Below, in pieces: positions 2,500 to 28,639 of a stretch of DNA of 32,000 nucleotides. The DNA is taken from the NCBI GenBank assembly GCA_002952755.1, contig CP025011.1:510001-542000 (forward strand). The letters run 5' to 3'. The translations under genes were made by a program, and so were the position numbers. The DNA is from Candidatus Saccharimonadota bacterium. Its GTDB lineage: Bacteria; Patescibacteriota; Saccharimonadia; Saccharimonadales; UBA4665. Within the stretch, counting starts at the first letter, position 1, and each line of letters begins with the position of its first letter. Below the pieces are notes generated by a model. That model was not told the origin of the DNA and searched no databases. It saw only the letters and a program-made list of their open reading frames with translations.

Positions 2500-2999
2500 A
2501 ACGCCCCAAGCTACCTGCACTCCACCGTTTTGTGCCGAACCGGGGTAGTCGACCCTCGATTCAGGAGGTGGTGCACGAGACAACAGCCGGTGGTATTATT
2601 TTCCGCCGGGATCAAAAGACCAATCAGGTAGAAATTCTGCTTATTCAGGATGCCAAGGATCGCTGGACTATCCCCAAAGGCCATGTCGAGGAGGGTGAAG
2701 AACCGAAGCAGACCGCTGAACGCGAGATTAATGAAGAAACTGGTCTTAAAGAGATGAAAGTCTTTAACTGGCTGGGAAAAGTATCATTCCGCTATCGCCG
2801 CGGCCAAACGCTTGTGCTCATGACCATGCACATCTATTTGGTACAAGCCCTGGGCGACACCAATGATCTAAACCCCGAAGATTGGCTCAATGACATAAAA
2901 TGGTTCCCCTCGAATCTGGCCATCGACAAAATCGCCTACGACGATATTGGAAAGTTAATTTTACTAGGAATGAAAAAGATACGTGATGCAAAACTCTAG
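2496..2999 (+). CDS. NUDIX hydrolase
   Basis: Nudix box GHVEEGEEPKQTAEREINEETG (GX5EX7REUXEEXGU). The ATG overlaps the nusB TGA (ATGA), suggesting translational coupling. Confidence 0.85.
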   Translation: MKRPKLPALHRFVPNRGSRPSIQEVVHETTAGGIIFRRDQKTNQVEILLIQDAKDRWTIPKGHVEEGEEPKQTAEREINEETGLKEMKVFNWLGKVSFRYRRGQTLVLMTMHIYLVQALGDTNDLNPEDWLNDIKWFPSNLAIDKIAYDDIGKLILLGMKKIRDAKL

Positions 3000-3726
3000 T
3001 GACAATCCCGAACCTTCCAAAATTTATATGGATTATAGCGCTTATACCGAATTCGCCGAAAAGGTGCTCGGTGTGGTTTTTGACAATATCCAGTTGCTGG
3101 TTACTGCCTTCACGCACCGTTCATACATTAATGAGCACAAAAAATCAGCTTCCGAGCACAACGAACGCCTTGAGTTTTTGGGCGATGCCGTGCTGGAGTT
3201 GGTAGTAACCGAATATTTGTACATTAATTTTAGCGAGCCAGAGGGTATTCTTACCAACTGGCGTAGCAGTCTGGTGCGTACCGAGAGCATCGGCGCCGCT
3301 GCTGCCAAGTTTAACTTCGAACCGCTTTTGCGCCTTAGCCGTGGTGAAAAGCATGGCACCGACCGAGCGCGGGTTCAAATTTTGGCCAATAGTTATGAAG
3401 CTGTCGTCGGTGCATTATATCTGGATAAGGGGTACGGCGCGGCCAAGAGTTTTATTACTAAGAGCATCCTGGTGACTTTTAAAGAAATCCTGAAGACTGG
3501 CTCATGGCTAGATCCAAAATCACAGCTACAGGAAGTAGCCCAAAGTCGTGACGGACACACGCCTGTCTATAAAGTACTCAGCGAAGATGGCCCTGATCAC
3601 GAAAAAACGTTTGTAGTGGGCGTATTTGTAGGCAGCAAACTCAAAGGGCAGGGCGAGGGCCCGAGCAAGCAAGCCGGCCAGCAAAAGGCGGCCGAAGCTG
3701 CCTTGCTTAGCTACGAGAAGAAATAG
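2983..3726 (+). CDS. rnc: Ribonuclease III
   Basis: RNase III signature NERLEFLGDAVLELVVTEYLY plus a C-terminal dsRBD (GPDHEKTFVVGV...KQAGQQKAAEAAL). Start is uncertain: GTG 2983, ATG 2986 or ATG 3027. Confidence 0.92.
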   Translation: MMQNSSDNPEPSKIYMDYSAYTEFAEKVLGVVFDNIQLLVTAFTHRSYINEHKKSASEHNERLEFLGDAVLELVVTEYLYINFSEPEGILTNWRSSLVRTESIGAAAAKFNFEPLLRLSRGEKHGTDRARVQILANSYEAVVGALYLDKGYGAAKSFITKSILVTFKEILKTGSWLDPKSQLQEVAQSRDGHTPVYKVLSEDGPDHEKTFVVGVFVGSKLKGQGEGPSKQAGQQKAAEAALLSYEKK

Positions 3727-4843: not shown

Positions 4844-5254
4844 ATGTTAGCCATTCGCATGCAACGCACCGGTCGCAAAGGTCACGCTATGTTCCGCGTA
4901 GTCGTACAAGAATCGCGCGCCACGCCTACCAGCGGCAAAGTCGTTGCACAGCTTGGTTCATACGACCCGCACACCAAAACTGCGGTGCTGGATAAAGAAA
5001 AAGCCTCTACTTTTCTAAAGAACGGCGCACAACCTTCTGAACGAGCGGCTTCACTACTCAAGAGCCAGGGCGTTGATCTCCCTTCTTGGGTAAGCTTCAA
5101 CACTAAGAAGTCTGGTGTATTGCGTAACCCAGATAAGCTGCGTAAGAATCAGCCAAAAGAGGAAGTAAAAGCGGAAGCCTCTGCAGACGAAGCTGCCCAA
5201 GAAGCGCCGGCTGATGAGGCTGCTGCCGAATCAGAAGCCGAAGAAAAGGCATAA
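4844..5254 (+). CDS. rpsP: 30S ribosomal protein bS16 with an Ala/Glu-rich acidic C-terminal extension
   Basis: MLAIRMQRTGRKGHAMFRVVV...GSYDP is the canonical bS16 N-terminus. The track ORF (TTG 4799) was trimmed to ATG 4844. Confidence 0.92.
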   Translation: MLAIRMQRTGRKGHAMFRVVVQESRATPTSGKVVAQLGSYDPHTKTAVLDKEKASTFLKNGAQPSERAASLLKSQGVDLPSWVSFNTKKSGVLRNPDKLRKNQPKEEVKAEASADEAAQEAPADEAAAESEAEEKA

Positions 5255-5285
5255 GCCTCGTTCGTTTGGTGAGCTGCTTAGTCGA

Positions 5286-5310
5286 GTGTCCCAAGTAAAG
5301 GGGCACTTTT
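5286..5310 (+). terminator. Putative intrinsic terminator after rpsP
   Basis: GTGTCCC-aagtaaa-GGGGCAC (one G-T pair) followed by TTTT. Confidence 0.45.
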
Positions 5311-5361
5311 CAACTGAGATAGAATGAGTGGGAATGTTCACAGTCGCGAGCTTCCCATTTT

Positions 5362-5370
5362 TGGTATAAT
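5362..5370 (+). promoter_or_regulatory. Extended -10 promoter upstream of the KH gene
   Basis: TGgTATAAT, followed by an AAGGAG SD. Confidence 0.45.
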
Positions 5371-5405
5371 TAAAGTTAACCAGTTAACTAAGGAGTTTTC
5401 TGCAC

Positions 5406-5855
5406 ATGAGTAGTATTGACCAGCAATTCGTCGAGTTTATTGTCAAATCACTGGTAAGCAAGCCCGATGCGGTAAGTATTGAGCGCCGTATTGACGAAAA
5501 GGGTGTACTTCTGGAGTTGACCGTTGATCCAGAAGATCTCGGTCGGGTTATCGGCAAGCGTGGCGCCACTGCCCAATCACTGCGCACTTTATTGCGTGCA
5601 CTAGGTACCAAGAACGACGCCCGCTATAACCTTAAAATTGTCGACAATGGTGAGCCGGGCATGGGCGGCGGTAGCTCCCAGCAAACGAGCGACAACGACG
5701 ACAACACAACTTCATCTGCGAGTGATGATTCGACCGGCCTAAAGGACGATGACGACCTCGATTTTGCACAAGTCTCTAAGCGTAACGACGATGAGGACAG
5801 TGTGGTCAGCAAGACGCGCAAAGAGCTGGACGAGTTGGACGATCTCGACATCTAG
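5406..5855 (+). CDS. KH-domain RNA-binding protein (YlqC/UPF0109 type) with a long Asp-rich tail
   Basis: LGRVIGKRGATAQSLRTLL contains the GxxG KH motif. It occupies the conserved position downstream of rpsP. AAGGAG SD upstream. Confidence 0.85.
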   Translation: MSSIDQQFVEFIVKSLVSKPDAVSIERRIDEKGVLLELTVDPEDLGRVIGKRGATAQSLRTLLRALGTKNDARYNLKIVDNGEPGMGGGSSQQTSDNDDNTTSSASDDSTGLKDDDDLDFAQVSKRNDDEDSVVSKTRKELDELDDLDI

Positions 5856-7748: not shown

Positions 7749-8021
7749 ATGCTGTTGGTACGTCGAGTAGTGGGCAAAAGCATGGCCCCTACATTGCAGC
7801 CAGGTCGCCTCGTCTTTGCTCGCAAACCACGAAGTATCCGTCCAGGGGATATCATCCTTTTTAGGCAAGGACCCAAGGAGTACATTAAGCGAGTTGACCG
7901 TATCAATAATGACCGTTTATTCGTGCTGGGCGACAATCAAGAATTGAGCACAGACAGCCGCGAATTTGGTTGGCTGGATATGAGCACTTTGGTTGCTAAG
8001 GTTGTATGGCCGCGCACTTAG
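7749..8021 (+). CDS. sodX: NiSOD maturation protease (S26 signal-peptidase-like)
   Basis: The GKSMAPTL serine motif and GDN...S.DSR motif sit in a 90-aa protein starting 4 nt after the sodN stop. Confidence 0.85.
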   Translation: MLLVRRVVGKSMAPTLQPGRLVFARKPRSIRPGDIILFRQGPKEYIKRVDRINNDRLFVLGDNQELSTDSREFGWLDMSTLVAKVVWPRT

Positions 8022-8082
8022 CGAGCACGCCGGTTACTACTGTATGCCAGTCCGAATATCAAAATTGCCGAGGCTCGCTAAG
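8017..8082. repeat. 10-bp inverted repeat with a 46-nt spacer between convergent sodX and the ABC permease
   Basis: CTTAGCGAGC (8017-8026, overlapping the sodX stop codon) pairs with GCTCGCTAAG (8073-8082). Confidence 0.45.
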
Positions 8083-11248: not shown

Positions 11249-11911
11249 ATGCAGGATCTAACGATCGCTATTCGACCTTTGGCGACCAAACGTACGTTCA
11301 AGAAACATTCCATTCTGTTGTATCAGGGGGAGGTGCCGCGCACCGCCTATATACTGCTCAGTGGCATAGTAAAAACGTACAGTATTAATGCGGCCGGGGA
11401 AGAGCAGATTGCCTCCTTTGAGGTGGAAAAAGATATTTTCCCGCTGTCGTGGATTTTCCACAAAGCTTCTACAACCCTCTATTACCACGAAGCGCTGACC
11501 GACTGCGAAGTCCTAACGGTACCGCGGGATGCGCTGCTTCAAACGTTGGCCGCAGATGCTGAGCTTAAGGATGTCGTCATGGACTACCTTGTTGTGGCAC
11601 ATACCAGTATGTTCCTACGAGTGACTGCCTTGGAGCAGTCGCGGGCCCGGGAAAAGATTATGTTCACGCTTTATTACTTACTCTCGCGGTATGGCCAGGA
11701 GATAAAACCTGGCGTGTTTCGCGTCAGGCTGGCACTGACCCACGGTACGATTGCTAGTCTAGTAGGACTTACGCGGGAAACGACCACGACAGAACTGAGC
11801 CGCTTGCGCCGCGAGAAGGTACTGACGTATACAACCAATGACTACACTATAGATAAGACTAAGCTTGAGCGCTTGCTCGGAGAAGACAGCTTTAAGGATA
11901 TTATTCTGTAG
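11249..11911 (+). CDS. Crp/Fnr-family transcription regulator
   Basis: N-terminal cNMP-binding beta-roll and C-terminal HTH (TIASLVGLTRETTTTELSRLRREKVL). Confidence 0.85.
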   Translation: MQDLTIAIRPLATKRTFKKHSILLYQGEVPRTAYILLSGIVKTYSINAAGEEQIASFEVEKDIFPLSWIFHKASTTLYYHEALTDCEVLTVPRDALLQTLAADAELKDVVMDYLVVAHTSMFLRVTALEQSRAREKIMFTLYYLLSRYGQEIKPGVFRVRLALTHGTIASLVGLTRETTTTELSRLRREKVLTYTTNDYTIDKTKLERLLGEDSFKDIIL

Positions 11912-12013
11912 GCATCCGCTCCTGCCCGTCGAGAGGAGCGTTACACGCAGGCCAGCTTATGCTGGTCTGGCTGCACTACGCCTGACTCCTCTCGACGGGC
12001 AGGAGCGGATGCC
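11911..12013 (+). repeat. Conserved-core super-hairpin, copy 1
   Basis: A 28-bp perfect inverted repeat (11911-11938 / 11986-12013) encloses a 47-nt core, CGTTACACGCAGGCCAGCTTATGCTGGTCTGGCTGCACTACGCCTGA. The left arm starts at the last base of the crp-family stop codon. The element lies between convergent genes. Confidence 0.9.
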
Positions 12014-12034
12014 CAAAACTTATATAATCTGAGC

Positions 12035-12448
12035 TTAGTCGATGTTACTAGCCAGCGTGTTTTCAACCACTTGGAGTAATTCTTTTGGCGAGGCCCAGGC
12101 CTTAAGGATATAGCGGTCGGCGCCAAGGCCGTAGGCTTCATCAATTTCTTTTTGCATGTCGTAGTTACTAAAGACAATGACGCGCACGTTCGGATGTTTC
12201 TTGAGCAGCTGGTATTTCTTAAGAAAGCCAATGCCATCGAGTCGGGGCATTCGCAAATCGAGCAAAATAAGTGTCGGCTCATGCTGGGCTGCTACTTTCA
12301 AAGCTTCTTCGCCGTCGTATGCGGTATACACGGTATAGCCACTTTTTTGCAGGATCATCTGGTAGGCGTCGTTTAATGAGTGCTCGTCTTCAACGATGAG
12401 AATGGAGGGCTGTTGTTTCGTGGTCATAGCTGTGCCGTTTCGATTCAT
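12035..12448 (-). CDS. Stand-alone response-regulator receiver (CheY-like, no output domain)
   Basis: ILIVEDE...ILLDLRMPRLDG...SNY...K receiver motifs. Alternative start at ATG 12427. Confidence 0.85.
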   Translation of the reverse strand: MNRNGTAMTTKQQPSILIVEDEHSLNDAYQMILQKSGYTVYTAYDGEEALKVAAQHEPTLILLDLRMPRLDGIGFLKKYQLLKKHPNVRVIVFSNYDMQKEIDEAYGLGADRYILKAWASPKELLQVVENTLASNID

Positions 12449-12527
12449 GCCTATCTACTATAAGTATACCATCAGATATGCACAGTGAAAAAAATTATAC
12501 CCTTGGCGGCAATCCTTCTTTGCTTTA

Positions 12528-14294
12528 CTAAACTTTTGTGGGCAGAATAATCGTAAGGGTCGAGCCTTTTCCCTGCTTGGAGTCAACGACTATGGCGCCT
12601 CCGTGCAGCTCGACCAGGTGTTTGGCCAGATATAAACCTATACCAGTACCACCGACATGCTGGCTCATTTCGTTTGGCAGACGGGTGAATTGCTTAAACA
12701 TTTCCCGTTGGTCATGCTTGGCAATGCCGACGCCGTTATCGGTAATGCGAATATAGGTATGCCCAATACGCTGGAAAAGCCTTATGCCGATTTTGCCGCT
12801 GCTGGGAGTGTACTTAATTGCGTTGCTGAGAACGTTTTCGATAGCCATGCGGAGCATGTGGGAGTCGGCCTGTATGATGACTGGCTTTTTAGGTAGTTCC
12901 AGTTTGAGGCCGTGATTGGCGGCCTGAATATCAGGACGCTGTTCGGTTACGATGTCGGTGATGAGTTCGTTCAGATCGGTTGGTGTGGGTGCTAGGACGA
13001 TGCGCCCGGCATCGATTTTCGCCAGGTGCAAGATCTCGTTAATAATCTGCAATTGGCGGTCGTTGCTGGCGTAGGCTTTTTCGAGTAGTGTTGTTTGCTC
13101 GGTAGTGATGTGTCCGGCAAAACCCTGTAAAACCATGCCGACGTACTGTTTCACTCCTGTTGCCGGGGTCCGAAGCTGGTGAGATGCCAGTGACAGCAGT
13201 TCATCCTTGGCCAGTTCTACGGCACGTTCCTTTTGGACGGTTAGTTCTTGTGAGCGGGCCCGTAGTAGCAAGAGGACGATGACACCAATGAGCACTGCCA
13301 CAAAGGTACCGGAAAAGAGAATGCCCGCTGGACGCTTACTCTCAATAGAACTTACTAAGCCATTTTTATCAAAGGCATATTGCATATCCCAGGTCTCGCC
13401 ATAAAGCGTCAAATGCCGGCTCACGAGGATGCGGCTATTCTTTTTGAGTATAGCTTCGAAATGGGGTGACTGGTAGAGGTTGGTATGTGCCCCCTCGCCC
13501 TGTACTGCAATTCGAAAACCGGCATTTGCGCTGTCAGTACCTTTACCGATTCCACCGAAAAAGACATCGGCTCGAAACGCGGCGAAGGTATAGCCGAGAA
13601 TGGCACTGCGCCGTTCGTGAATGTTGCTGATTGGCAGATCTACCCGGTAGTAAGGTATGTACATGTTAAATCCAATTGTCGTCCCGTCGGCTGATCCGGC
13701 CGCAGCGAGCCCTCCGGTAATCGTCGTCATCCCGCTGTCCTCTGCATGGAGCAAGGCAGCTTTACGCGATGGATCCGAGTACATATTAAATCCGTAAGGA
13801 ATCTGACCATGCGAAGCTACTAACTGGACATAGGTGAGCGGCGCATAGACCGTATCTGACGATGAGATCGGTTGGATGGTAAAGTTAGGAACTCCCTGCG
13901 ACGCCATATATGCTGCGAGCCCAGGAGCTTGGTCGGGTGTTGTCAGCCGGATGAAGCCAATACCTTGTACACCGGGATAGTTCTGGTTTAGCTGGAAGGC
14001 TTGCAGGTAATGCGTCCAATCGGCTCGAGTCACCTCATCCGAACCTTGCAGCAGGCCGACGCCCCCTTGCAAGATCTCTTCGTATGCGGCCATGCTGCTT
14101 TCAATAGATTGTTCGGTGCTGTGCACATGCATATTGGCCGCAGTAGTTATGCCTTGATTGAGCGAAGTGCGGGCAGCGCTCCAGCCGAATACCGTTGCAA
14201 TCAATATAGCTAATACGATAACTGCCGGCGGAAAATATAATGAATGATACATAGCCGTCGTTCCAAAACGTACACGCTTGCTGTAAAGCCTCAT
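12528..14294 (-). CDS. Sensor histidine kinase with an extracytoplasmic CHASE domain
   Basis: Two TM helices flank a CHASE-like domain (GFNMYSDPSRKAALLHAEDSG). HisKA motif SHQLRTPATG and HATPase N/G boxes are present. Start set to ATG 14294 (track gives 14330), which lies 7 nt downstream of a TATACT hexamer. Confidence 0.85.
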   Translation of the reverse strand: MRLYSKRVRFGTTAMYHSLYFPPAVIVLAILIATVFGWSAARTSLNQGITTAANMHVHSTEQSIESSMAAYEEILQGGVGLLQGSDEVTRADWTHYLQAFQLNQNYPGVQGIGFIRLTTPDQAPGLAAYMASQGVPNFTIQPISSSDTVYAPLTYVQLVASHGQIPYGFNMYSDPSRKAALLHAEDSGMTTITGGLAAAGSADGTTIGFNMYIPYYRVDLPISNIHERRSAILGYTFAAFRADVFFGGIGKGTDSANAGFRIAVQGEGAHTNLYQSPHFEAILKKNSRILVSRHLTLYGETWDMQYAFDKNGLVSSIESKRPAGILFSGTFVAVLIGVIVLLLLRARSQELTVQKERAVELAKDELLSLASHQLRTPATGVKQYVGMVLQGFAGHITTEQTTLLEKAYASNDRQLQIINEILHLAKIDAGRIVLAPTPTDLNELITDIVTEQRPDIQAANHGLKLELPKKPVIIQADSHMLRMAIENVLSNAIKYTPSSGKIGIRLFQRIGHTYIRITDNGVGIAKHDQREMFKQFTRLPNEMSQHVGGTGIGLYLAKHLVELHGGAIVVDSKQGKGSTLTIILPTKV

Positions 14295-14301
14295 GCATCT
14301 A

Positions 14302-14307
14302 AGTATA
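14302..14307 (-). promoter_or_regulatory. -10 hexamer for the histidine kinase, leaderless spacing
   Basis: TATACT-7 nt-ATG 14294. Confidence 0.4.
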
Positions 14308-14429
14308 GACCGCTCTCGCTGAACCCGCACCTAGGTCATCTTAAAATCATGGCAGCGGGGAGGAGGTTTTGCTACACTAGGGTTAGCATAATCTATGGCA
14401 GATCTTAAAGAGTAATATTAAGGGTGGAG

Positions 14430-14831
14430 ATGCCTAAGAATATATTTATACGCTATATATTGGTTGGCGGAACGGCTTATGTGATCGAGATGGGCTCGCT
14501 CTTTGTGCTGCGCTACGGTCTTGATCTGAGCCCTCTCGTATCGGCAGCCTGTAGTTTTTGGATTGGTTTTGCTGTGGCATTTGTGCTGCAGAAATTTGTC
14601 ACCTTCCAGAACTATGAAAAAAAGGCTCAGACGGTTGCCAGGCAGGCGGTATTATACAGCGCCCTCACAGTCTGGAATTACGCATTCACACTTGTACTCG
14701 TGAAGATTTTTGCCAAATATGCCTCGGTGCTGATTATCCGTACTGCTGCTATCGCGGTCATTACTTCCTGGAATTTTTTTGTATACAAACGCTTTTTCCG
14801 TAATCGTCCGCAGGTTGTGATAATCGAATGA
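14430..14831 (+). CDS. GtrA-family membrane protein
   Basis: Four-TM GtrA-like protein (RYILVGGTAYVIEMGSLFVL...). ATG 14430 follows AAGGGTGGAG; the track starts at GTG 14424. Confidence 0.8.
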   Translation: MPKNIFIRYILVGGTAYVIEMGSLFVLRYGLDLSPLVSAACSFWIGFAVAFVLQKFVTFQNYEKKAQTVARQAVLYSALTVWNYAFTLVLVKIFAKYASVLIIRTAAIAVITSWNFFVYKRFFRNRPQVVIIE

Positions 14832-17551
14832 GTACTAGTAAGAAAAAACACCGGTCCAAAGCCAAATCTGCGAAAGCAAGAAGGCAGCAAGCTGCAGCTC
14901 GCAAAACATCGAAGGCGATCGAGCGGAAGGGCAGTACAGAAAATCGGTCGCCAGCTCAAGAAACAGCAACCCCACCAGCAGCTCGCTTGTCTGGTTTTAG
15001 TATTACGGTAGGGAAACGGCGATATGACCTGGCGCCAGTACATGCATGTATTGGGCTTCTTGCTTTGTTAGTGACGGCCGCTGGCTGGTCACTGCTGGCC
15101 GCTCGTATTCAGCAAGGCAACGCTGACCAGACGGTAAACACATATCTTTTTACTCACTGGTCGACATTCCATGCCGCAACATTGCCTGGGGCTCATTCTT
15201 TCCTTCTTAAGTGGCCGCTTTTTGTGTTGGCAAATCTGCTAGGTGCAACGCATGCCACCTTTGCGTTTCTTACCTGTCTTGTCACGTTGACTACTGTGAG
15301 CGCTCTGGCCTATGTTCTGTATAGGATCGATCGCCGGCCTTTATTATTCGGCACCTATTGTCTAGCTCTCGCCTCTATCCTATTGGCGATTCCACCCGAG
15401 CCGTATGCTGGCGGTCTGCTCCCGGTAAATATGGCAATGCTTACCACGCGCAATATCGAATATATAGTCTATATAGTGGGCCTGGTTCTGTGTATTCGTG
15501 CGCCTCGGTTGAAGGCGGGGGGATTTTGGTGGGGAGGGCTACTCCTGGGTATGCTGTTTGCGAGCGACAAGTTGTTCGCCACCCTCAGTATTGGGGGTGC
15601 AGCATTGGCGCTCATAAGCTATGGCATCCGGGGCAAACGGAAACTTGTACGACTATCTCTTATCTGGCTGCTCTGTAGCGGCTTCGCACTGGCTATCGCC
15701 GATATTGTTCTTTGGAGCATTGGGGCGGCTCATCTGACGCATATTGCTACCCAGTCTGGTACGAGCCCATATCCGGCTGCTACTGGTGTTAAAGATATCG
15801 CCCTAGGGGTTATTTTCGGCTGTCTGGGTATATTGACCAATTTTGGCGCCAATCCAGCCTTCGATGCAGCAGTGCTACGCAAAATCCCCAGCCTGGCATA
15901 TGGTCGTTTGGCGAGCCTAAGTGGGTTCGCGTTCGTCATGAACGGCCTCTTATGTATAACTGGCTTGTACGCAACCGCACGTCTGTTAGGTACAAGTTTA
16001 TTCCATTCGAAAGACCGGCAGCCACGTCTTGATATGCCGGTCGTGCTCTCGTTGTTTCTTATTTGGTCGTCTTTAGCCGCCTGCGGGGCATTTATTGCAA
16101 CACATCATTATTACGTTGTCGACGCCCGCTACTTAAGCATTTTGCTGTTTGCAGTGTTTGTCTCGACTGTAACCTATTTTCGGGGAAAAGCACTGCACCG
16201 TGGGCTATTTGCGCCGCTAAGTGTGATGCTGGTAGTTTCGATTAGCTGTGGCACGATTACGGCCATTCGTATATACAAGCAGGATCGTCAGGCACTTGCT
16301 GATGTGAGCACACGCAACGCACTTGTTGCAAAGGCTCTTATCAATCATCCTGTCAGTGTACTCGTGGGCGACTACTGGCGCGTATTGCCCATTAAGGATA
16401 GTGCCTCTCACGGTCTGAATGTCATGCCGCTCGACGCCTGTAATCAGCCGCGGGGCATCTTAAGCAGTGCTACTTGGCAGCCAGATTTGTCCACCCATAG
16501 TTTTGCCTATCTGTTGTCGTTCGATAAGAGTCTTACGAATTATCCGAACTGCTCGTTGACCCAGGTTATGCAAGCATATGGCCGGCCAAATGCGAGCGTG
16601 ACGATAGCCGGTACGCTGGAACACCCTACTGAGATGCTACTTTACTATGACCATGGTGCCCATAAAAGCGCGCCGCAACTTGCGACCTCGGCTTCGCATA
16701 GCGTACCAAGTACCGTGCTACCTATCTCACTTGAAGAACTGCCGATTGAGCATTGCGAAGGAGGGGCGACGATCATGAATGTCGTTGCTCACCAGGACGA
16801 TGACCTACTGTTTATTAGTCCCGATTTACTTCATGATATTCAGGCAAAGCATTGTGTACGTACGGTATATGTCACTGCTGGGGACGGTGGTGGTGATCAG
16901 CTCTATTGGCAAGCGCGTGAGCAAGGTTCGGAGGCTGCGTATTCTACTATGCTCGGCGTTGATAATGGCTGGGTACAACATATCGTAAAACTGGGAGATC
17001 ATGAATTCGCAACGGTTGTAAATCCGCGCGGTAACAAACAGGTCTCATTGATCTTTTTGCATCTGCCCGATGGCAATGTAAGCGGCCAGGGTTTCCGAGC
17101 GTCGGACTTTGAGAGTCTTGCCCGGCTTGAGGGAGATCGTATTAATACAATGCACAGCGTCGATCATCAATCCATCTATACCTCAACGTCACTGGTAAGT
17201 GCACTGACCGAGCTGATGCAGGCTTATCATCCAACCGAGATTCGTACACAGGCTACGTACAATGCCAGCAAGATGTACCAGGACCATAGCGATCATATGG
17301 CAGTGGGTCGTTATACGCAAAAAGCTTATGTGGCCTATGCTGATGAGGGCACAACCATCGAGTTTTATTATGGTTATCCCATCCATGGCATGGTACCTAA
17401 CATTGCTCCGGACGACTTGGCCCAAAAAACGGCGGCGTTCATGGCGTATGCAAAGTTCGATGGAGCGGCTTGCCACAATGTAGATCAGTGTGAGTATTCA
17501 TCGAATTACGGGCCTTACCTGAAGCGACAGTACGGCTATACAGAGCACTAG
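14828..17551 (+). CDS. Polytopic membrane protein fused to a C-terminal PIG-L/LmbE-family deacetylase domain
   Basis: Basic N-terminal tail, about 12 predicted TM helices, then PIG-L motifs VVAHQDDDLLF, YVTAGDGG and QDHSDH. The ATG overlaps the gtrA TGA (ATGA). Confidence 0.8.
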   Translation: MSTSKKKHRSKAKSAKARRQQAAARKTSKAIERKGSTENRSPAQETATPPAARLSGFSITVGKRRYDLAPVHACIGLLALLVTAAGWSLLAARIQQGNADQTVNTYLFTHWSTFHAATLPGAHSFLLKWPLFVLANLLGATHATFAFLTCLVTLTTVSALAYVLYRIDRRPLLFGTYCLALASILLAIPPEPYAGGLLPVNMAMLTTRNIEYIVYIVGLVLCIRAPRLKAGGFWWGGLLLGMLFASDKLFATLSIGGAALALISYGIRGKRKLVRLSLIWLLCSGFALAIADIVLWSIGAAHLTHIATQSGTSPYPAATGVKDIALGVIFGCLGILTNFGANPAFDAAVLRKIPSLAYGRLASLSGFAFVMNGLLCITGLYATARLLGTSLFHSKDRQPRLDMPVVLSLFLIWSSLAACGAFIATHHYYVVDARYLSILLFAVFVSTVTYFRGKALHRGLFAPLSVMLVVSISCGTITAIRIYKQDRQALADVSTRNALVAKALINHPVSVLVGDYWRVLPIKDSASHGLNVMPLDACNQPRGILSSATWQPDLSTHSFAYLLSFDKSLTNYPNCSLTQVMQAYGRPNASVTIAGTLEHPTEMLLYYDHGAHKSAPQLATSASHSVPSTVLPISLEELPIEHCEGGATIMNVVAHQDDDLLFISPDLLHDIQAKHCVRTVYVTAGDGGGDQLYWQAREQGSEAAYSTMLGVDNGWVQHIVKLGDHEFATVVNPRGNKQVSLIFLHLPDGNVSGQGFRASDFESLARLEGDRINTMHSVDHQSIYTSTSLVSALTELMQAYHPTEIRTQATYNASKMYQDHSDHMAVGRYTQKAYVAYADEGTTIEFYYGYPIHGMVPNIAPDDLAQKTAAFMAYAKFDGAACHNVDQCEYSSNYGPYLKRQYGYTEH

Positions 17552-17568
17552 GCGCCTCTTGAGTGGCA

Positions 17569-17678
17569 CAAAACAACCAGCCCCTGCTGCTACGGAGAGC
17601 GTTACACGCAGGCCGACTAGAAGTCGGTCTGGTTGCACTACGCCTGACTCTCCGTAGCAGCAGGGGCTGGTTGTTTTG
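17569..17678 (+). repeat. Conserved-core super-hairpin, copy 2
   Basis: A 31-bp perfect inverted repeat (17569-17599 / 17648-17678) encloses a 48-nt core, CGTTACACGCAGGCCGACTAGAAGTCGGTCTGGTTGCACTACGCCTGA. The element starts 18 nt after the stop codon at 17551. Confidence 0.9.
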
Positions 17679-17711
17679 CTTCCTGCCTTGACTGACAACG
17701 ACCGAACTGGT

Positions 17712-17717
17712 TATGCT
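17712..17717 (+). promoter_or_regulatory. -10 hexamer for 17724..18308, leaderless spacing
   Basis: TATGCT-6 nt-ATG 17724. Confidence 0.4.
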
Positions 17718-17723
17718 ACAATC

Positions 17724-18308
17724 ATGCCGCCTGCAACCCAAACAAATTCTTCTGTCACCCCGGCTTCATCTGCTTCAGAGGCGGTCACCACCACGGAGCG
17801 ACAGTCAAAAAAGGCATCTCACCCGCCAGAGCGTCCTAAGACATCAAGCAACATATTGCCGATATTACTCATCGTAGTTGGAAGTGGGGCTCTTGTGGTG
17901 CTCCTGATTATCGGTGCATACAGGCTCGGCAAGCAAAAACCGCCCACAACTATCACCAAACAAGTACAGGTACCGCTCCCGGCGCCTACGCTTCCAGCCA
18001 ACGCTGTATTAACGGCCGCATGCCTGGCTCAGCGCGGCGAACAGTATGCGCTACCTACGACCAGCACGACCGGCCTAACCTATGATGTCTACCAGGGAAA
18101 AATCGTTGCTATTGAGTACCTTGTCGGCCAAAATGAATTAAGCAAGCCGGGCGATCTATTTTCAAATCTCTCGCTCCCACGCACCGACTACGAACATCTT
18201 ACGGTTAGTTCAGTGCCTGCAAGCGCTAGCCAAAAAGAGCCGCAATTTCGCATTATTGCCTATACGATAAGCCAGTCGGAGGCCGCTAAAATCACTTGCG
18301 TTAAGTAA
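17724..18308 (+). CDS. Single-pass membrane protein with a small extracytoplasmic domain, function unknown
   Basis: TM helix ILPILLIVVGSGALVVLLIIGAY. The track ORF (TTG 17676) would start inside the upstream hairpin arm. ATG 17724 lies 6 nt after a TATGCT hexamer. Confidence 0.55.
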   Translation: MPPATQTNSSVTPASSASEAVTTTERQSKKASHPPERPKTSSNILPILLIVVGSGALVVLLIIGAYRLGKQKPPTTITKQVQVPLPAPTLPANAVLTAACLAQRGEQYALPTTSTTGLTYDVYQGKIVAIEYLVGQNELSKPGDLFSNLSLPRTDYEHLTVSSVPASASQKEPQFRIIAYTISQSEAAKITCVK

Positions 18309-18309
18309 G

Positions 18310-18412
18310 TTTAAGGCACCCGGCTCTCCCAGTAGAGTCAAGCGTAGTGCAACCAGACCAGCGTAAGCTGGCCTGCGTGTAACGCTCTACTGGGAGAGCC
18401 GGGTGCCTTAAA
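18310..18412 (-). repeat. Conserved-core super-hairpin, copy 3 (core inverted)
   Basis: A 28-bp perfect inverted repeat (18310-18337 / 18385-18412) encloses a 47-nt core. The reverse complement of that core is CGTTACACGCAGGCCAGCTTACGCTGGTCTGGTTGCACTACGCTTGA. The element starts 2 nt after the stop codon at 18308. Confidence 0.9.
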
Positions 18413-18445
18413 ACAAGCTTTTGCAATCTTTTGTTCCGGAATATG

Positions 18446-18709
18446 CTAGCGGCCGCTTTTCTGCCCGGCACGCCATCTGGCATGCGCCAGAGCAATACCT
18501 ACAGAAATTGCACTGATATACATAAGGCCGGTAGTACAAGACTGCAAGATAGGAGCATGAGTGCTTATAACTAAATAGGTGCCGCTGGCCAATGTAGCGC
18601 CGACCATGGAGTAAGCCGTGTAAAATTTGGCCCGTGATGGTGTAAAGAAGACATATGTGGTGGCGACCATACTAGCGAGCGCAGTAACAAGATGAATAAG
18701 TACAAACAT
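18446..18709 (-). CDS. Small three-TM membrane protein downstream of cyoE
   Basis: 87-aa hydrophobic ORF with TATACT 6 nt upstream of its ATG. Confidence 0.5.
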   Translation of the reverse strand: MFVLIHLVTALASMVATTYVFFTPSRAKFYTAYSMVGATLASGTYLVISTHAPILQSCTTGLMYISAISVGIALAHARWRAGQKSGR

Positions 18710-23810: not shown

Positions 23811-23850
23811 AAATACCAGCTCCGTTTTATGATTTGCGGCAAGGTTAGGG

Positions 23851-23856
23851 TATAGT
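23851..23856 (+). promoter_or_regulatory. -10 hexamer for 23863..24507, leaderless spacing
   Basis: TATAGT-6 nt-ATG 23863. Confidence 0.45.
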
Positions 23857-23862
23857 GCCTGC

Positions 23863-27773: not shown

Positions 27774-27876
27774 TTTTTCACAGAAAGTATAGCACAGGGT
27801 GATGCTAAACCCCGAAAGACTGTCTCCTTGCTTTCACACTATCATCCCGGACCTATTCTCATCGGCTCTACATGCT

Positions 27877-28586: not shown

Positions 28587-28593
28587 GAAGCGT

Positions 28594-28599
28594 AGTATA
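28594..28599 (-). promoter_or_regulatory. -10 hexamer for the HAD hydrolase, leaderless spacing
   Basis: TATACT-7 nt-ATG 28586. Confidence 0.45.
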
Positions 28600-28639
28600 G
28601 CTTTTTAGCTACTGCTCTACTAGCTAGTTTTCGGAGTTC

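Follow-up and report, generated by a model that had tools for sequence, protein, structure and literature searches.

An apparently undescribed family of palindromic repeats with an invariant apex in Saccharimonadia

What kind of element carries a nearly identical apex on long hairpins whose arms pair perfectly and yet differ from copy to copy? Three such hairpins lie in the 32 kb stretch of contig CP025011.1 from a Candidatus Saccharimonadota bacterium (order Saccharimonadales) that is analysed here (the window), together with other sequences retrieved for comparison (L-numbered loci and P-numbered proteins). The hairpins belong to a real and apparently undescribed family, which is low-copy, dispersed and restricted to some Saccharimonadia (TM7, candidate phyla radiation). 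Across its copies, the family presents itself as a dispersed, evidently insertion-derived palindromic repeat, with an invariant asymmetric apex and arms that diverge freely but remain paired. It sits mostly in short 3' intergenic spacers, and is also found in frame inside an open reading frame (ORF) or upstream of a gene. The explanation that we prefer, and to which we give about an even chance of being correct, is a non-autonomous mobile DNA element of the kind represented by repetitive extragenic palindromic (REP) sequences, miniature inverted-repeat transposable elements (MITEs) and Rickettsia palindromic elements (RPEs).

The hairpins and their family

Sequence reading and a repeat finder both confirmed the geometry given in a first-pass annotation of the window. 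Copy 1, on the plus strand, has arms of 28 nt (11911-11938 and 11986-12013) around a core of 47 nt (11939-11985). Copy 2, also on the plus strand, has arms of 31 nt (17569-17599 and 17648-17678) around 48 nt (17600-17647). Copy 3, whose core reads on the minus strand, has arms of 28 nt (in core orientation, 18385-18412 is the 5' and 18310-18337 the 3' arm) around 47 nt (18338-18384). All three pairs of arms are 100% complementary. Of the 47 positions, core 1 shares 44 with core 3 (reverse-complemented) and differs at 3. No other long inverted repeats occur in the window, the other five reported pairs being 14-23 nt long and 78-86% complementary. The 15-mer CGTTACACGCAGGCC is found there exactly three times, on the plus strand at 11939 and 17600 and on the minus strand at 18370-18384. 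Each element, as RNA or DNA, folds into a single long hairpin with a z-score of -11 to -14 against shuffles. A chance origin is excluded by the three exact core occurrences and the repeat-finder result. An assembly artefact is excluded as well, since copy 1 was found in independent Logan assemblies of runs SRR34954208 and SRR34954209. Of the Logan sequences, L001 is identical to the window over their overlap, and L002 shows four mismatches in a 3.1 kb overlap, with arms identical to those of the window.

The first-pass annotation had expected further copies in related genomes, and eight true copies were recovered outside the window with a relaxed core pattern that includes 21 invariant core bases, bringing the family to 11. 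L003, L005 and L008 come from a single metagenome, Ga0193726; L009, L011 and L012 from the Saccharimonadia metagenome-assembled genome (MAG) CALLJT01; and L013 from the Saccharibacteria MAG CAZJQT01. A further copy, L004, is located inside topA. The unit in each case is arm, core and arm, ~103-115 bp in total, with arms of 26-33 bp. The distribution is very sparse. A strict pattern (CGTTACACGCAGGCC-N6-20-GGTCTGG) had no match in GTDB genomes or IMG/VR, and the relaxed pattern found no match in IMG/VR and true copies in only 2 of 185,579 GTDB species representatives. Over all contigs, the relaxed pattern matched three times in CALLJT01 and once in CAZJQT01, and the source genome of the window holds three copies in ~38 kb (window plus L025). 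Five other relaxed-pattern matches (L006, L007 and L014, L010, L015) lie in coding sequence, lack arms and were rejected as chance.

A covariance model, as the first-pass annotation had proposed, was built from all 11 copies (model R1). Scanning ~225 kb of Saccharimonadia DNA with R1, including the 6.4 kb upstream of the window (L025), yielded no additional members; a weak match at L016:4041-4102 (17.4 bits, E = 0.0065) is spurious, being inside a coding region and without the invariant boxes. The conserved, structured core also has no match in Rfam, in line with the earlier view. Rfam 15 gave no match at gathering thresholds and nothing at E<=10 for the core alone. Over all Rfam searches, which covered the whole window, the 17540-18440 stretch with copies 2 and 3 and the core, the only matches were to microRNA precursors; they lie below threshold, are driven by the long stem and are spurious. 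There was no match by blastn to plasmids and phages. A full-text search of the paper library used here found neither the core sequence nor a paper tying RAYT or REPIN to Saccharibacteria or the candidate phyla radiation, and MITE or palindromic-element terms were absent from the top-ranked matches for Saccharibacteria/Patescibacteria.

Constancy of the core and pairing of the arms

Twenty-seven core positions are invariant in the alignment of all 11 copies (GTTACACGCAGG ... TCTGG-y-TGCACTACGC). They form two boxes, between which lies an apical hairpin whose sequence varies with full compensation (stems CCAGC/GCTGG, CCGAC/GTCGG, GAATCC/GGATTC and GTTTGC/CAAAC). The core contains two fixed internal loops and a helix, CAGG/TCTG, that holds an invariant G.T, and it is separated from the lower stem by a 3'-side bulge of 5-7 nt (CCTGA, CTTGA, CTGGAC, CTTTTA or CTTATA). 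In copy 1, the 5' box CGTTACACGCAGG (11939-11951) is followed on the plus strand by the apical hairpin CCAGC-TTAT-GCTGG (11952-11965), the 3' box TCTGGCTGCACTACGC (11966-11981) and, in the fold, the bulge CCTGA (11981-11985). Copy 2 has the same invariant boxes as copies 1 and 3, and its apical hairpin, CCGAC-TAGAA-GTCGG, is compensated relative to theirs. Pair counting supports the fold throughout the family: 15 pairs have changed on both sides, the observed values were reached by none of 500 shuffles, and 84% of cells are paired in the true register versus 34-46% in slid controls.

To what extent is the core constrained beyond its arms? In a leave-one-genome-out test, columns invariant in the other eight copies were compared with the remaining columns, and both were scored within the three copies of each genome. 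The invariant columns varied at 2/30, 0/30 and 0/28 positions and the remaining columns at 66/94, 52/88 and 29/96 (p from 3e-10 to 2.5e-4). The core is thus constrained far more than the arms, on which, judging by the sequences, the constraint is one of pairing only. The first-pass annotation had made a specific role for the core depend on its outlasting the arms across genomes. That is the pattern found, and by this yardstick it argues for such a role.

The opposite strand of the core indicates what this role could be. It reads GCGTAGTGCA..., with an invariant GTAG that leads into an imperfect palindrome. Here CACTACGC, invariant in the core, becomes GCGTAGTG, and TGCARCCAGA...CCTGCGTGTA follows with fixed mismatches. 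The resemblance to REP sequences noted in the first-pass annotation is therefore real, and it is invariant in 11/11 copies. Y1 transposases of the RAYT or IS200/IS605 type recognise REP or end hairpins as folded strands, and integrases do the same with attC sites. We propose that the invariant asymmetric core would likewise be a recognition module for a trans-acting protein that reads the folded single strand, either a Y1/HUH (RAYT-like) transposase or nuclease or a host factor. The two fixed internal loops, the fixed G.T, the bulge of 5-7 nt and the GTAG with its imperfect palindrome all fit such a module.

The arms tell a different story from the one first proposed for them. They had been described as essentially unrelated between copies; in global alignments against shuffles, the window arms instead behave as heavily diverged homologues (p=0.002 for copies 1 and 3, 0.024 for copies 1 and 2 and 0.03 for copies 2 and 3, uncorrected for three tests), with very roughly 60% identity and with indels. 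The arm trios of Ga0193726 and CALLJT01 give z-scores of 3.9-9.2 against shuffles, and in CALLJT01 the arms are ~85% identical at three loci and are kept together with the core, as in an ordinary MITE. The copies of one genome hence share an ancestral element in which the arms were already present. The earlier description of the element as the reverse of MITEs and REP sequences is fair for the window, but does not extend to CALLJT01, where arm conservation is on the level of such MITEs.

These relationships bear directly on the idea, also raised in the first-pass annotation, that only the ~47 nt core is mobile, and that it either enters the apex of a pre-existing palindrome or, on insertion, causes ~30 bp of adjacent target DNA to be duplicated in inverted orientation. 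The arms would then be local sequence. The strong differences between arms around nearly identical cores in the window and in Ga0193726 would be explained in this way, as would the rather constant arm length (26-33 bp), the partial complementarity that extends a few bases beyond the perfect arms in some copies, and a solo arm-like sequence at L011:5956-5977. However, the arms are statistically related within genomes and in CALLJT01 evidently travel with the core. The whole topA insert described below, both arms included, is absent from homologues; the window holds no core-less long palindromes; and the arms match nothing else in the sequence examined, where a search for a second match, as expected if they were copies of other sequence, was negative. 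We consider mobility of the core alone improbable. The solo sequence in L011 (CTGACCCACGCTCACTTT, minus strand) matches the CALLJT01 arms at 16/18 bases and lies upstream of a gene with no core or partner arm nearby; it may be all that remains of a copy that lost its core and other arm.

How can arms drift and remain perfectly paired? Whether a change in one arm is a substitution, a transversion or an indel, the other arm carries its mirror image; an example is a G-C to C-G transversion between L012 and L009. The continuous arm helices of the six copies from the window and Ga0193726 contain one A.C mismatch and no G.T, and all three Ga0193726 copies have an unpaired T beside the core. Read on the core strand, the arms of all 11 copies have 7 A.C mismatches versus 1 G.T, in addition to 13 other mismatches and 4 indels. 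An RNA read from this strand would tolerate the reverse, G.T rather than A.C. In a mobile palindrome of the kind we favour, the arm sequence itself would not be recognised, and complementarity would be restored by hairpin-templated copying of one arm from its partner, whether through intrastrand template switching at the hairpin when the DNA is replicated (quasipalindrome correction) or through resynthesis when the element transposes. Template switching at quasipalindromes is a known mutational mechanism in E. coli. Copying of this type would explain the mirrored indels and transversions and the absence of intermediates.

A more far-reaching version is that the hairpin propagates or maintains itself as a self-templating element: the core and one arm would suffice, and the second arm would be resynthesised by fold-back priming or template switching, so that the stem is rewritten perfect each time. 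We regard this as a long shot. A bolder variant still would see in the perfect ~30 bp arms a variable payload that is processed into small duplex RNAs.

Genomic position and competing explanations

In total, 9/11 copies follow a gene end, and for four of these (copies 1 and 3, L008 and L013) the stop codon is 0-2 nt away. Copies 1 and 3, L005 and L013 are located between convergent genes, a context that is uninformative on core orientation. In the four tandem-gene contexts, the core runs sense in copy 2, L008 and L009 and antisense in L003. L012 sits between divergent genes, ~10 nt upstream of the likely dnaG start, and a single copy of the 11 is intragenic.

Within the window, the distances from stop codon to hairpin are 0, 17 and 1 nt (stops at 11911, 17551 and 18308), which agrees with the range of 0-18 nt reported earlier. 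The first base of the copy 1 left arm is the last base of the crp stop codon, and 21 nt separate the end of the right arm from the stop codon of a response-regulator gene that converges on it (12035-12448, minus strand). Copy 2 begins 17 nt after the stop codon of a gene for a 907-aa PIG-L-domain protein and is followed by a promoter-like TTGACT-18-TATGCT (17688-17717) and the ATG of the next gene at 17724. Copy 3 starts 1 nt after the stop codon of this 194-aa gene (17724-18308) and ends 33 nt short of the stop codon of a convergent ORF (18446-18709, minus strand). The hypothetical 194-aa gene thereby lies between copies 2 and 3, which are inverted relative to each other. No such elements accompany its L016 homologue (44% identity).

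Besides the L012 copy upstream of dnaG, the rarity of the element among GTDB representatives and the arms that accompany the core in CALLJT01, two sites bear signs of insertion. The L004 copy lies inside topA, antisense and in frame, has no stop codon and adds ~40 residues (RREELSTRDSKSVVQPENPQDSLRVTLSRDESSERERSRQ) to a surface loop of TopA. This insert is absent from the homologues P0126 and P0128-P0132. In the spacer between crp and the response-regulator gene, relatives with 66-79% Crp identity lack the family element altogether. These are presence/absence differences at homologous sites seen in distant comparisons (57-79% protein identity), not exact empty sites. The crp spacers of relatives hold other sequences instead: a C-rich/G-rich hairpin in L017 (7863-8011) and L018 (1535-1683), two extra genes in L019, a different imperfect palindrome with an inner hairpin motif in L022 (1318-1529) and a 610-nt stretch with MITE-like terminal repeats in L020 (10667-11275). 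The L020 terminal repeats contain GTCATTCCCGCGAAGGCGGGAATCC-like hairpins, and L020 and L022 share a AATGTTACTT..GTCCCGC..AAGTA(A/G)C motif.

The preference for gene ends is also what would be expected of a host cis-acting RNA, in which a long perfect helix is capped by a conserved protein-binding module. Such an RNA could terminate transcription, in a factor-dependent or bidirectional manner, be processed by RNase III or block 3' exonucleases. Besides the copies placed directly after stop codons or between convergent genes, several features agree with this. RNA motifs bound by proteins classically combine invariant internal-loop bases with an apical stem that covaries, as the core does; the invariant G.U stands on the core strand, three of the four tandem-gene copies are sense, the core is intact in L004 and L013 where the arms have decayed, and the window encodes RNase III (2983-3726). 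Yet L003 is antisense between tandem genes, L004 antisense inside topA and L012 upstream of dnaG, and the arm mismatches on the core strand are mostly A.C rather than G.U. Relatives lack the element in the same spacer, only 2 of the 185,579 GTDB representatives gave true matches, and Rfam contains no counterpart. The structured 3'-end RNA or terminator put forward in the first-pass annotation is weakened by these contexts and mismatches; we consider it possible but rather unlikely.

Comparison with intrinsic (Rho-independent) terminators is instructive here. They share with the family a stable hairpin directly after a stop codon, in some cases between convergent genes. Unlike them, the family has no U-tract on either side, as the earlier reading had it: sequence reading found no T-run flanking the window copies on either strand, and a terminator scan placed none at the elements. 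Instead of a short loop the family has a conserved 47-nt apex, on a stem 3-4 times the usual length. Canonical hairpin-plus-U terminators are present in the same genome, elsewhere in the window (5254-5406). Hammerhead, hairpin, twister and pistol ribozymes and group II intron domain V were rejected, since their conserved cores are absent from the element, which has no Rfam match. A promoter inside the element was also rejected: the bulge and arm start do read TTGACT or CTGACT, but a suitably spaced -10 is lacking downstream.

On balance, the strand signals offset one another, and a constraint at the DNA level (folded single strands or a templated palindrome) fits better than a strand-specific RNA. 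Where a mobile palindrome of this kind is transcribed at gene ends, it would still form a very stable RNA hairpin with 28-31 perfectly paired bp, able perhaps to stop 3' exonucleases or to be cut by RNase III. This would be a side effect and not the reason for its conservation.

Alternatively, the elements could be duplex or cruciform sites with a chromosomal function (binding of a nucleoid, topoisomerase or replication protein, or recombination), which had spread by duplication or horizontal transfer and are now kept by host selection. A function of this type has been proposed for the BIMEs of E. coli. Strictly Watson-Crick arms that carry no RNA-strand signal, a core that is conserved in every resident copy and two same-strand heptamers in the core boxes (GTTACAC and GTTGCAC, the latter GCTGCAC in three copies) are all compatible with it. 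The very patchy distribution speaks against such a site, no candidate binding protein was identified, and the in-frame copy in topA follows no obvious chromosomal-site logic. Moreover, a spacer of 47 nt between the arms would in general disfavour cruciform extrusion. We rate this explanation as improbable, on a par with mobility of the core alone.

Several observations also weigh against a non-autonomous mobile element. The bias towards gene ends and stop codons is one, and the invariant G.T of the core, a legitimate wobble on the core strand only, is another. The copy number appears low, at 1-3 per MAG, unlike that of classical REP or MITE families. Sequence reading revealed no target-site duplication at any copy with perfect or nearly perfect arms. 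As the first-pass annotation had stated for the window, a Pfam scan of its ORFs found no transposase or recombinase, and none is present among the Pfam-labelled genes of the look-up loci; the same holds for RAYT (Y1 transposase). An empty site at nucleotide resolution was not obtained because the closest relative has only 79% Crp identity. Finally, the intact cores beside decayed arms in L004 and L013 hint at selection on resident copies and thus at a host-level function, which a purely selfish element would explain less well.

Among known systems, the family works most like REP/REPIN sequences, Correia/ERIC-type MITEs and RPEs, and is a demonstrated member of none. With the REP/REPIN sequences of E. 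coli and Pseudomonas, which RAYT (Y1 HUH) transposases mobilise, it shares short extragenic palindromic repeats mostly just downstream of genes. The opposite strand of the core has the REP layout of a GTAG and an imperfect palindrome of ~35-45 nt, and like a REPIN, the whole element forms one long hairpin and encodes no enzyme. REPIN arms, however, are conserved REP units around a variable apex, whereas here a single REP-like unit forms the apex and the arms are variable. REP/REPIN families have tens to hundreds of copies per genome, and the cognate RAYT gene is typically flanked by REPs. The present family differs in its apparently low copy number, in the lack of a RAYT in the loci scanned and in its candidate-phyla-radiation host.

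Correia/NEMIS elements of Neisseria and ERIC/IRU elements of enterobacteria are likewise intergenic foldback repeats of ~100-150 bp. They are transcribed into hairpins that RNase III or RNase E can cut, affecting mRNA stability, and some Correia subtypes have a functional site at the centre (IHF). Correia and ERIC elements have conserved terminal inverted repeats, whereas the window arms share only weak similarity (CALLJT01 arms reach ~85% identity) and the strictly invariant part is the central 27 bases. Correia elements also create a TA target duplication, and no duplication was seen here. The RPEs, by description palindromes of ~100-150 bp that insert in frame into protein genes and are translated, resemble the L004 copy with its ~40 aa added to TopA. 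Unlike the present family, they are conserved over their whole length and reside in Rickettsiales, and only 1/11 copies here is intragenic.

Integron attC sites offer a further parallel, as structure-conserved, sequence-variable hairpins (57-141 nt) placed right after stop codons and recognised as folded single strands via extrahelical bases, much as we propose for the core. In attC, though, the hairpin base is conserved (R''/R' boxes RYYYAAC / GTTRRRY) and the apex variable, which is reversed here. The window arm ends differ between copies and lack R''/R' boxes, and there is no integrase or cassette array, the neighbours being housekeeping genes such as crp and those for two-component and cytochrome oxidase proteins.

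Related hairpins and implications

Hairpins of like architecture with other cores occur nearby and in relatives. In the source genome, ~6.3-6.4 kb upstream of the window (the window starts at L025 position 6414), L025:18-131 has 33-nt arms that are 91% complementary, with a perfect inner 23 bp, around an unrelated, structured 48-nt centre (AGCCTGCGGAACTCGCCCTAAGGGGCTCAAACAGTCCTCGGCTTTATC) and a 5-nt 3'-side bulge, TTATC. In relatives, the long hairpins L016:7044-7159 and L017:5-127 have perfect lower stems of 22-25 bp, complex apical domains and stem/core bulges of 5-6 nt, AATCA (TGATT on the other strand) and TTGATT. Set beside the family bulges CCTGA, CTTGA and CTTATA, these suggest a superfamily defined by architecture rather than by sequence. 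A self-templating mechanism, if it exists, may be common to this wider group, with the same architecture and different cores.

Saccharibacteria TopA proteins (L004:2987-5773 and homologues P0124-P0142) have three hot spots of lineage-specific in-frame inserts. Recurrent low-complexity peptides are found in them (CHPELVSGS, ILKQVQDDN, LLDSPNKSANDE and EPRNDGRE), which look like translations of several different palindromic repeat families. The site-3 insert of P0125/L024 was considered as a decayed copy of the present family and rejected, the alignment being unconvincing and model R1 giving no match.

Other features of the window are separate from the family. Between the convergent genes ending at 8021 and 8123, a 10-bp inverted repeat, CTTAGCGAGC/GCTCGCTAAG, spans 8017-8082 with a centre of ~46 nt; it is unrelated to the family and folds no better than shuffles (z = -0.7). 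At 23848-23862, 27774-27793 and 28587-28601, a -10-like hexamer, TATACT or TATAGT, lies 6-12 nt upstream of an ATG with no Shine-Dalgarno sequence, which suggests leaderless or near-leaderless transcripts in the source genome. Adjacent NheI and NotI recognition sequences (GCTAGCGGCCGC, 18445-18456) overlap, probably by coincidence, the stop codon of ORF 18446-18709 on the minus strand, and no other sign of engineering was seen.

What does the family mean for the Saccharimonadia? Our literature search brought up no papers on repeats or mobile DNA of such a kind, either from Saccharibacteria or from the candidate phyla radiation at large. In bacterial palindromic repeats the usual conservation pattern is the inverse of the one seen here, where genomes share an invariant apex and the stems drift yet stay perfectly paired. 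This combination suggests that a structure-specific protein reads the apex and that templated copying keeps the long palindromes perfect, and model R1 makes both questions testable. Elements of this sort account for odd low-complexity stretches inserted in essential proteins, TopA among them, and they can mislead gene calling and terminator prediction in Saccharimonadia genomes. If the self-templating version were true, it would be a previously undescribed mode of bacterial repeat, in which a fixed protein-recognition apex is combined with a freely drifting stem.

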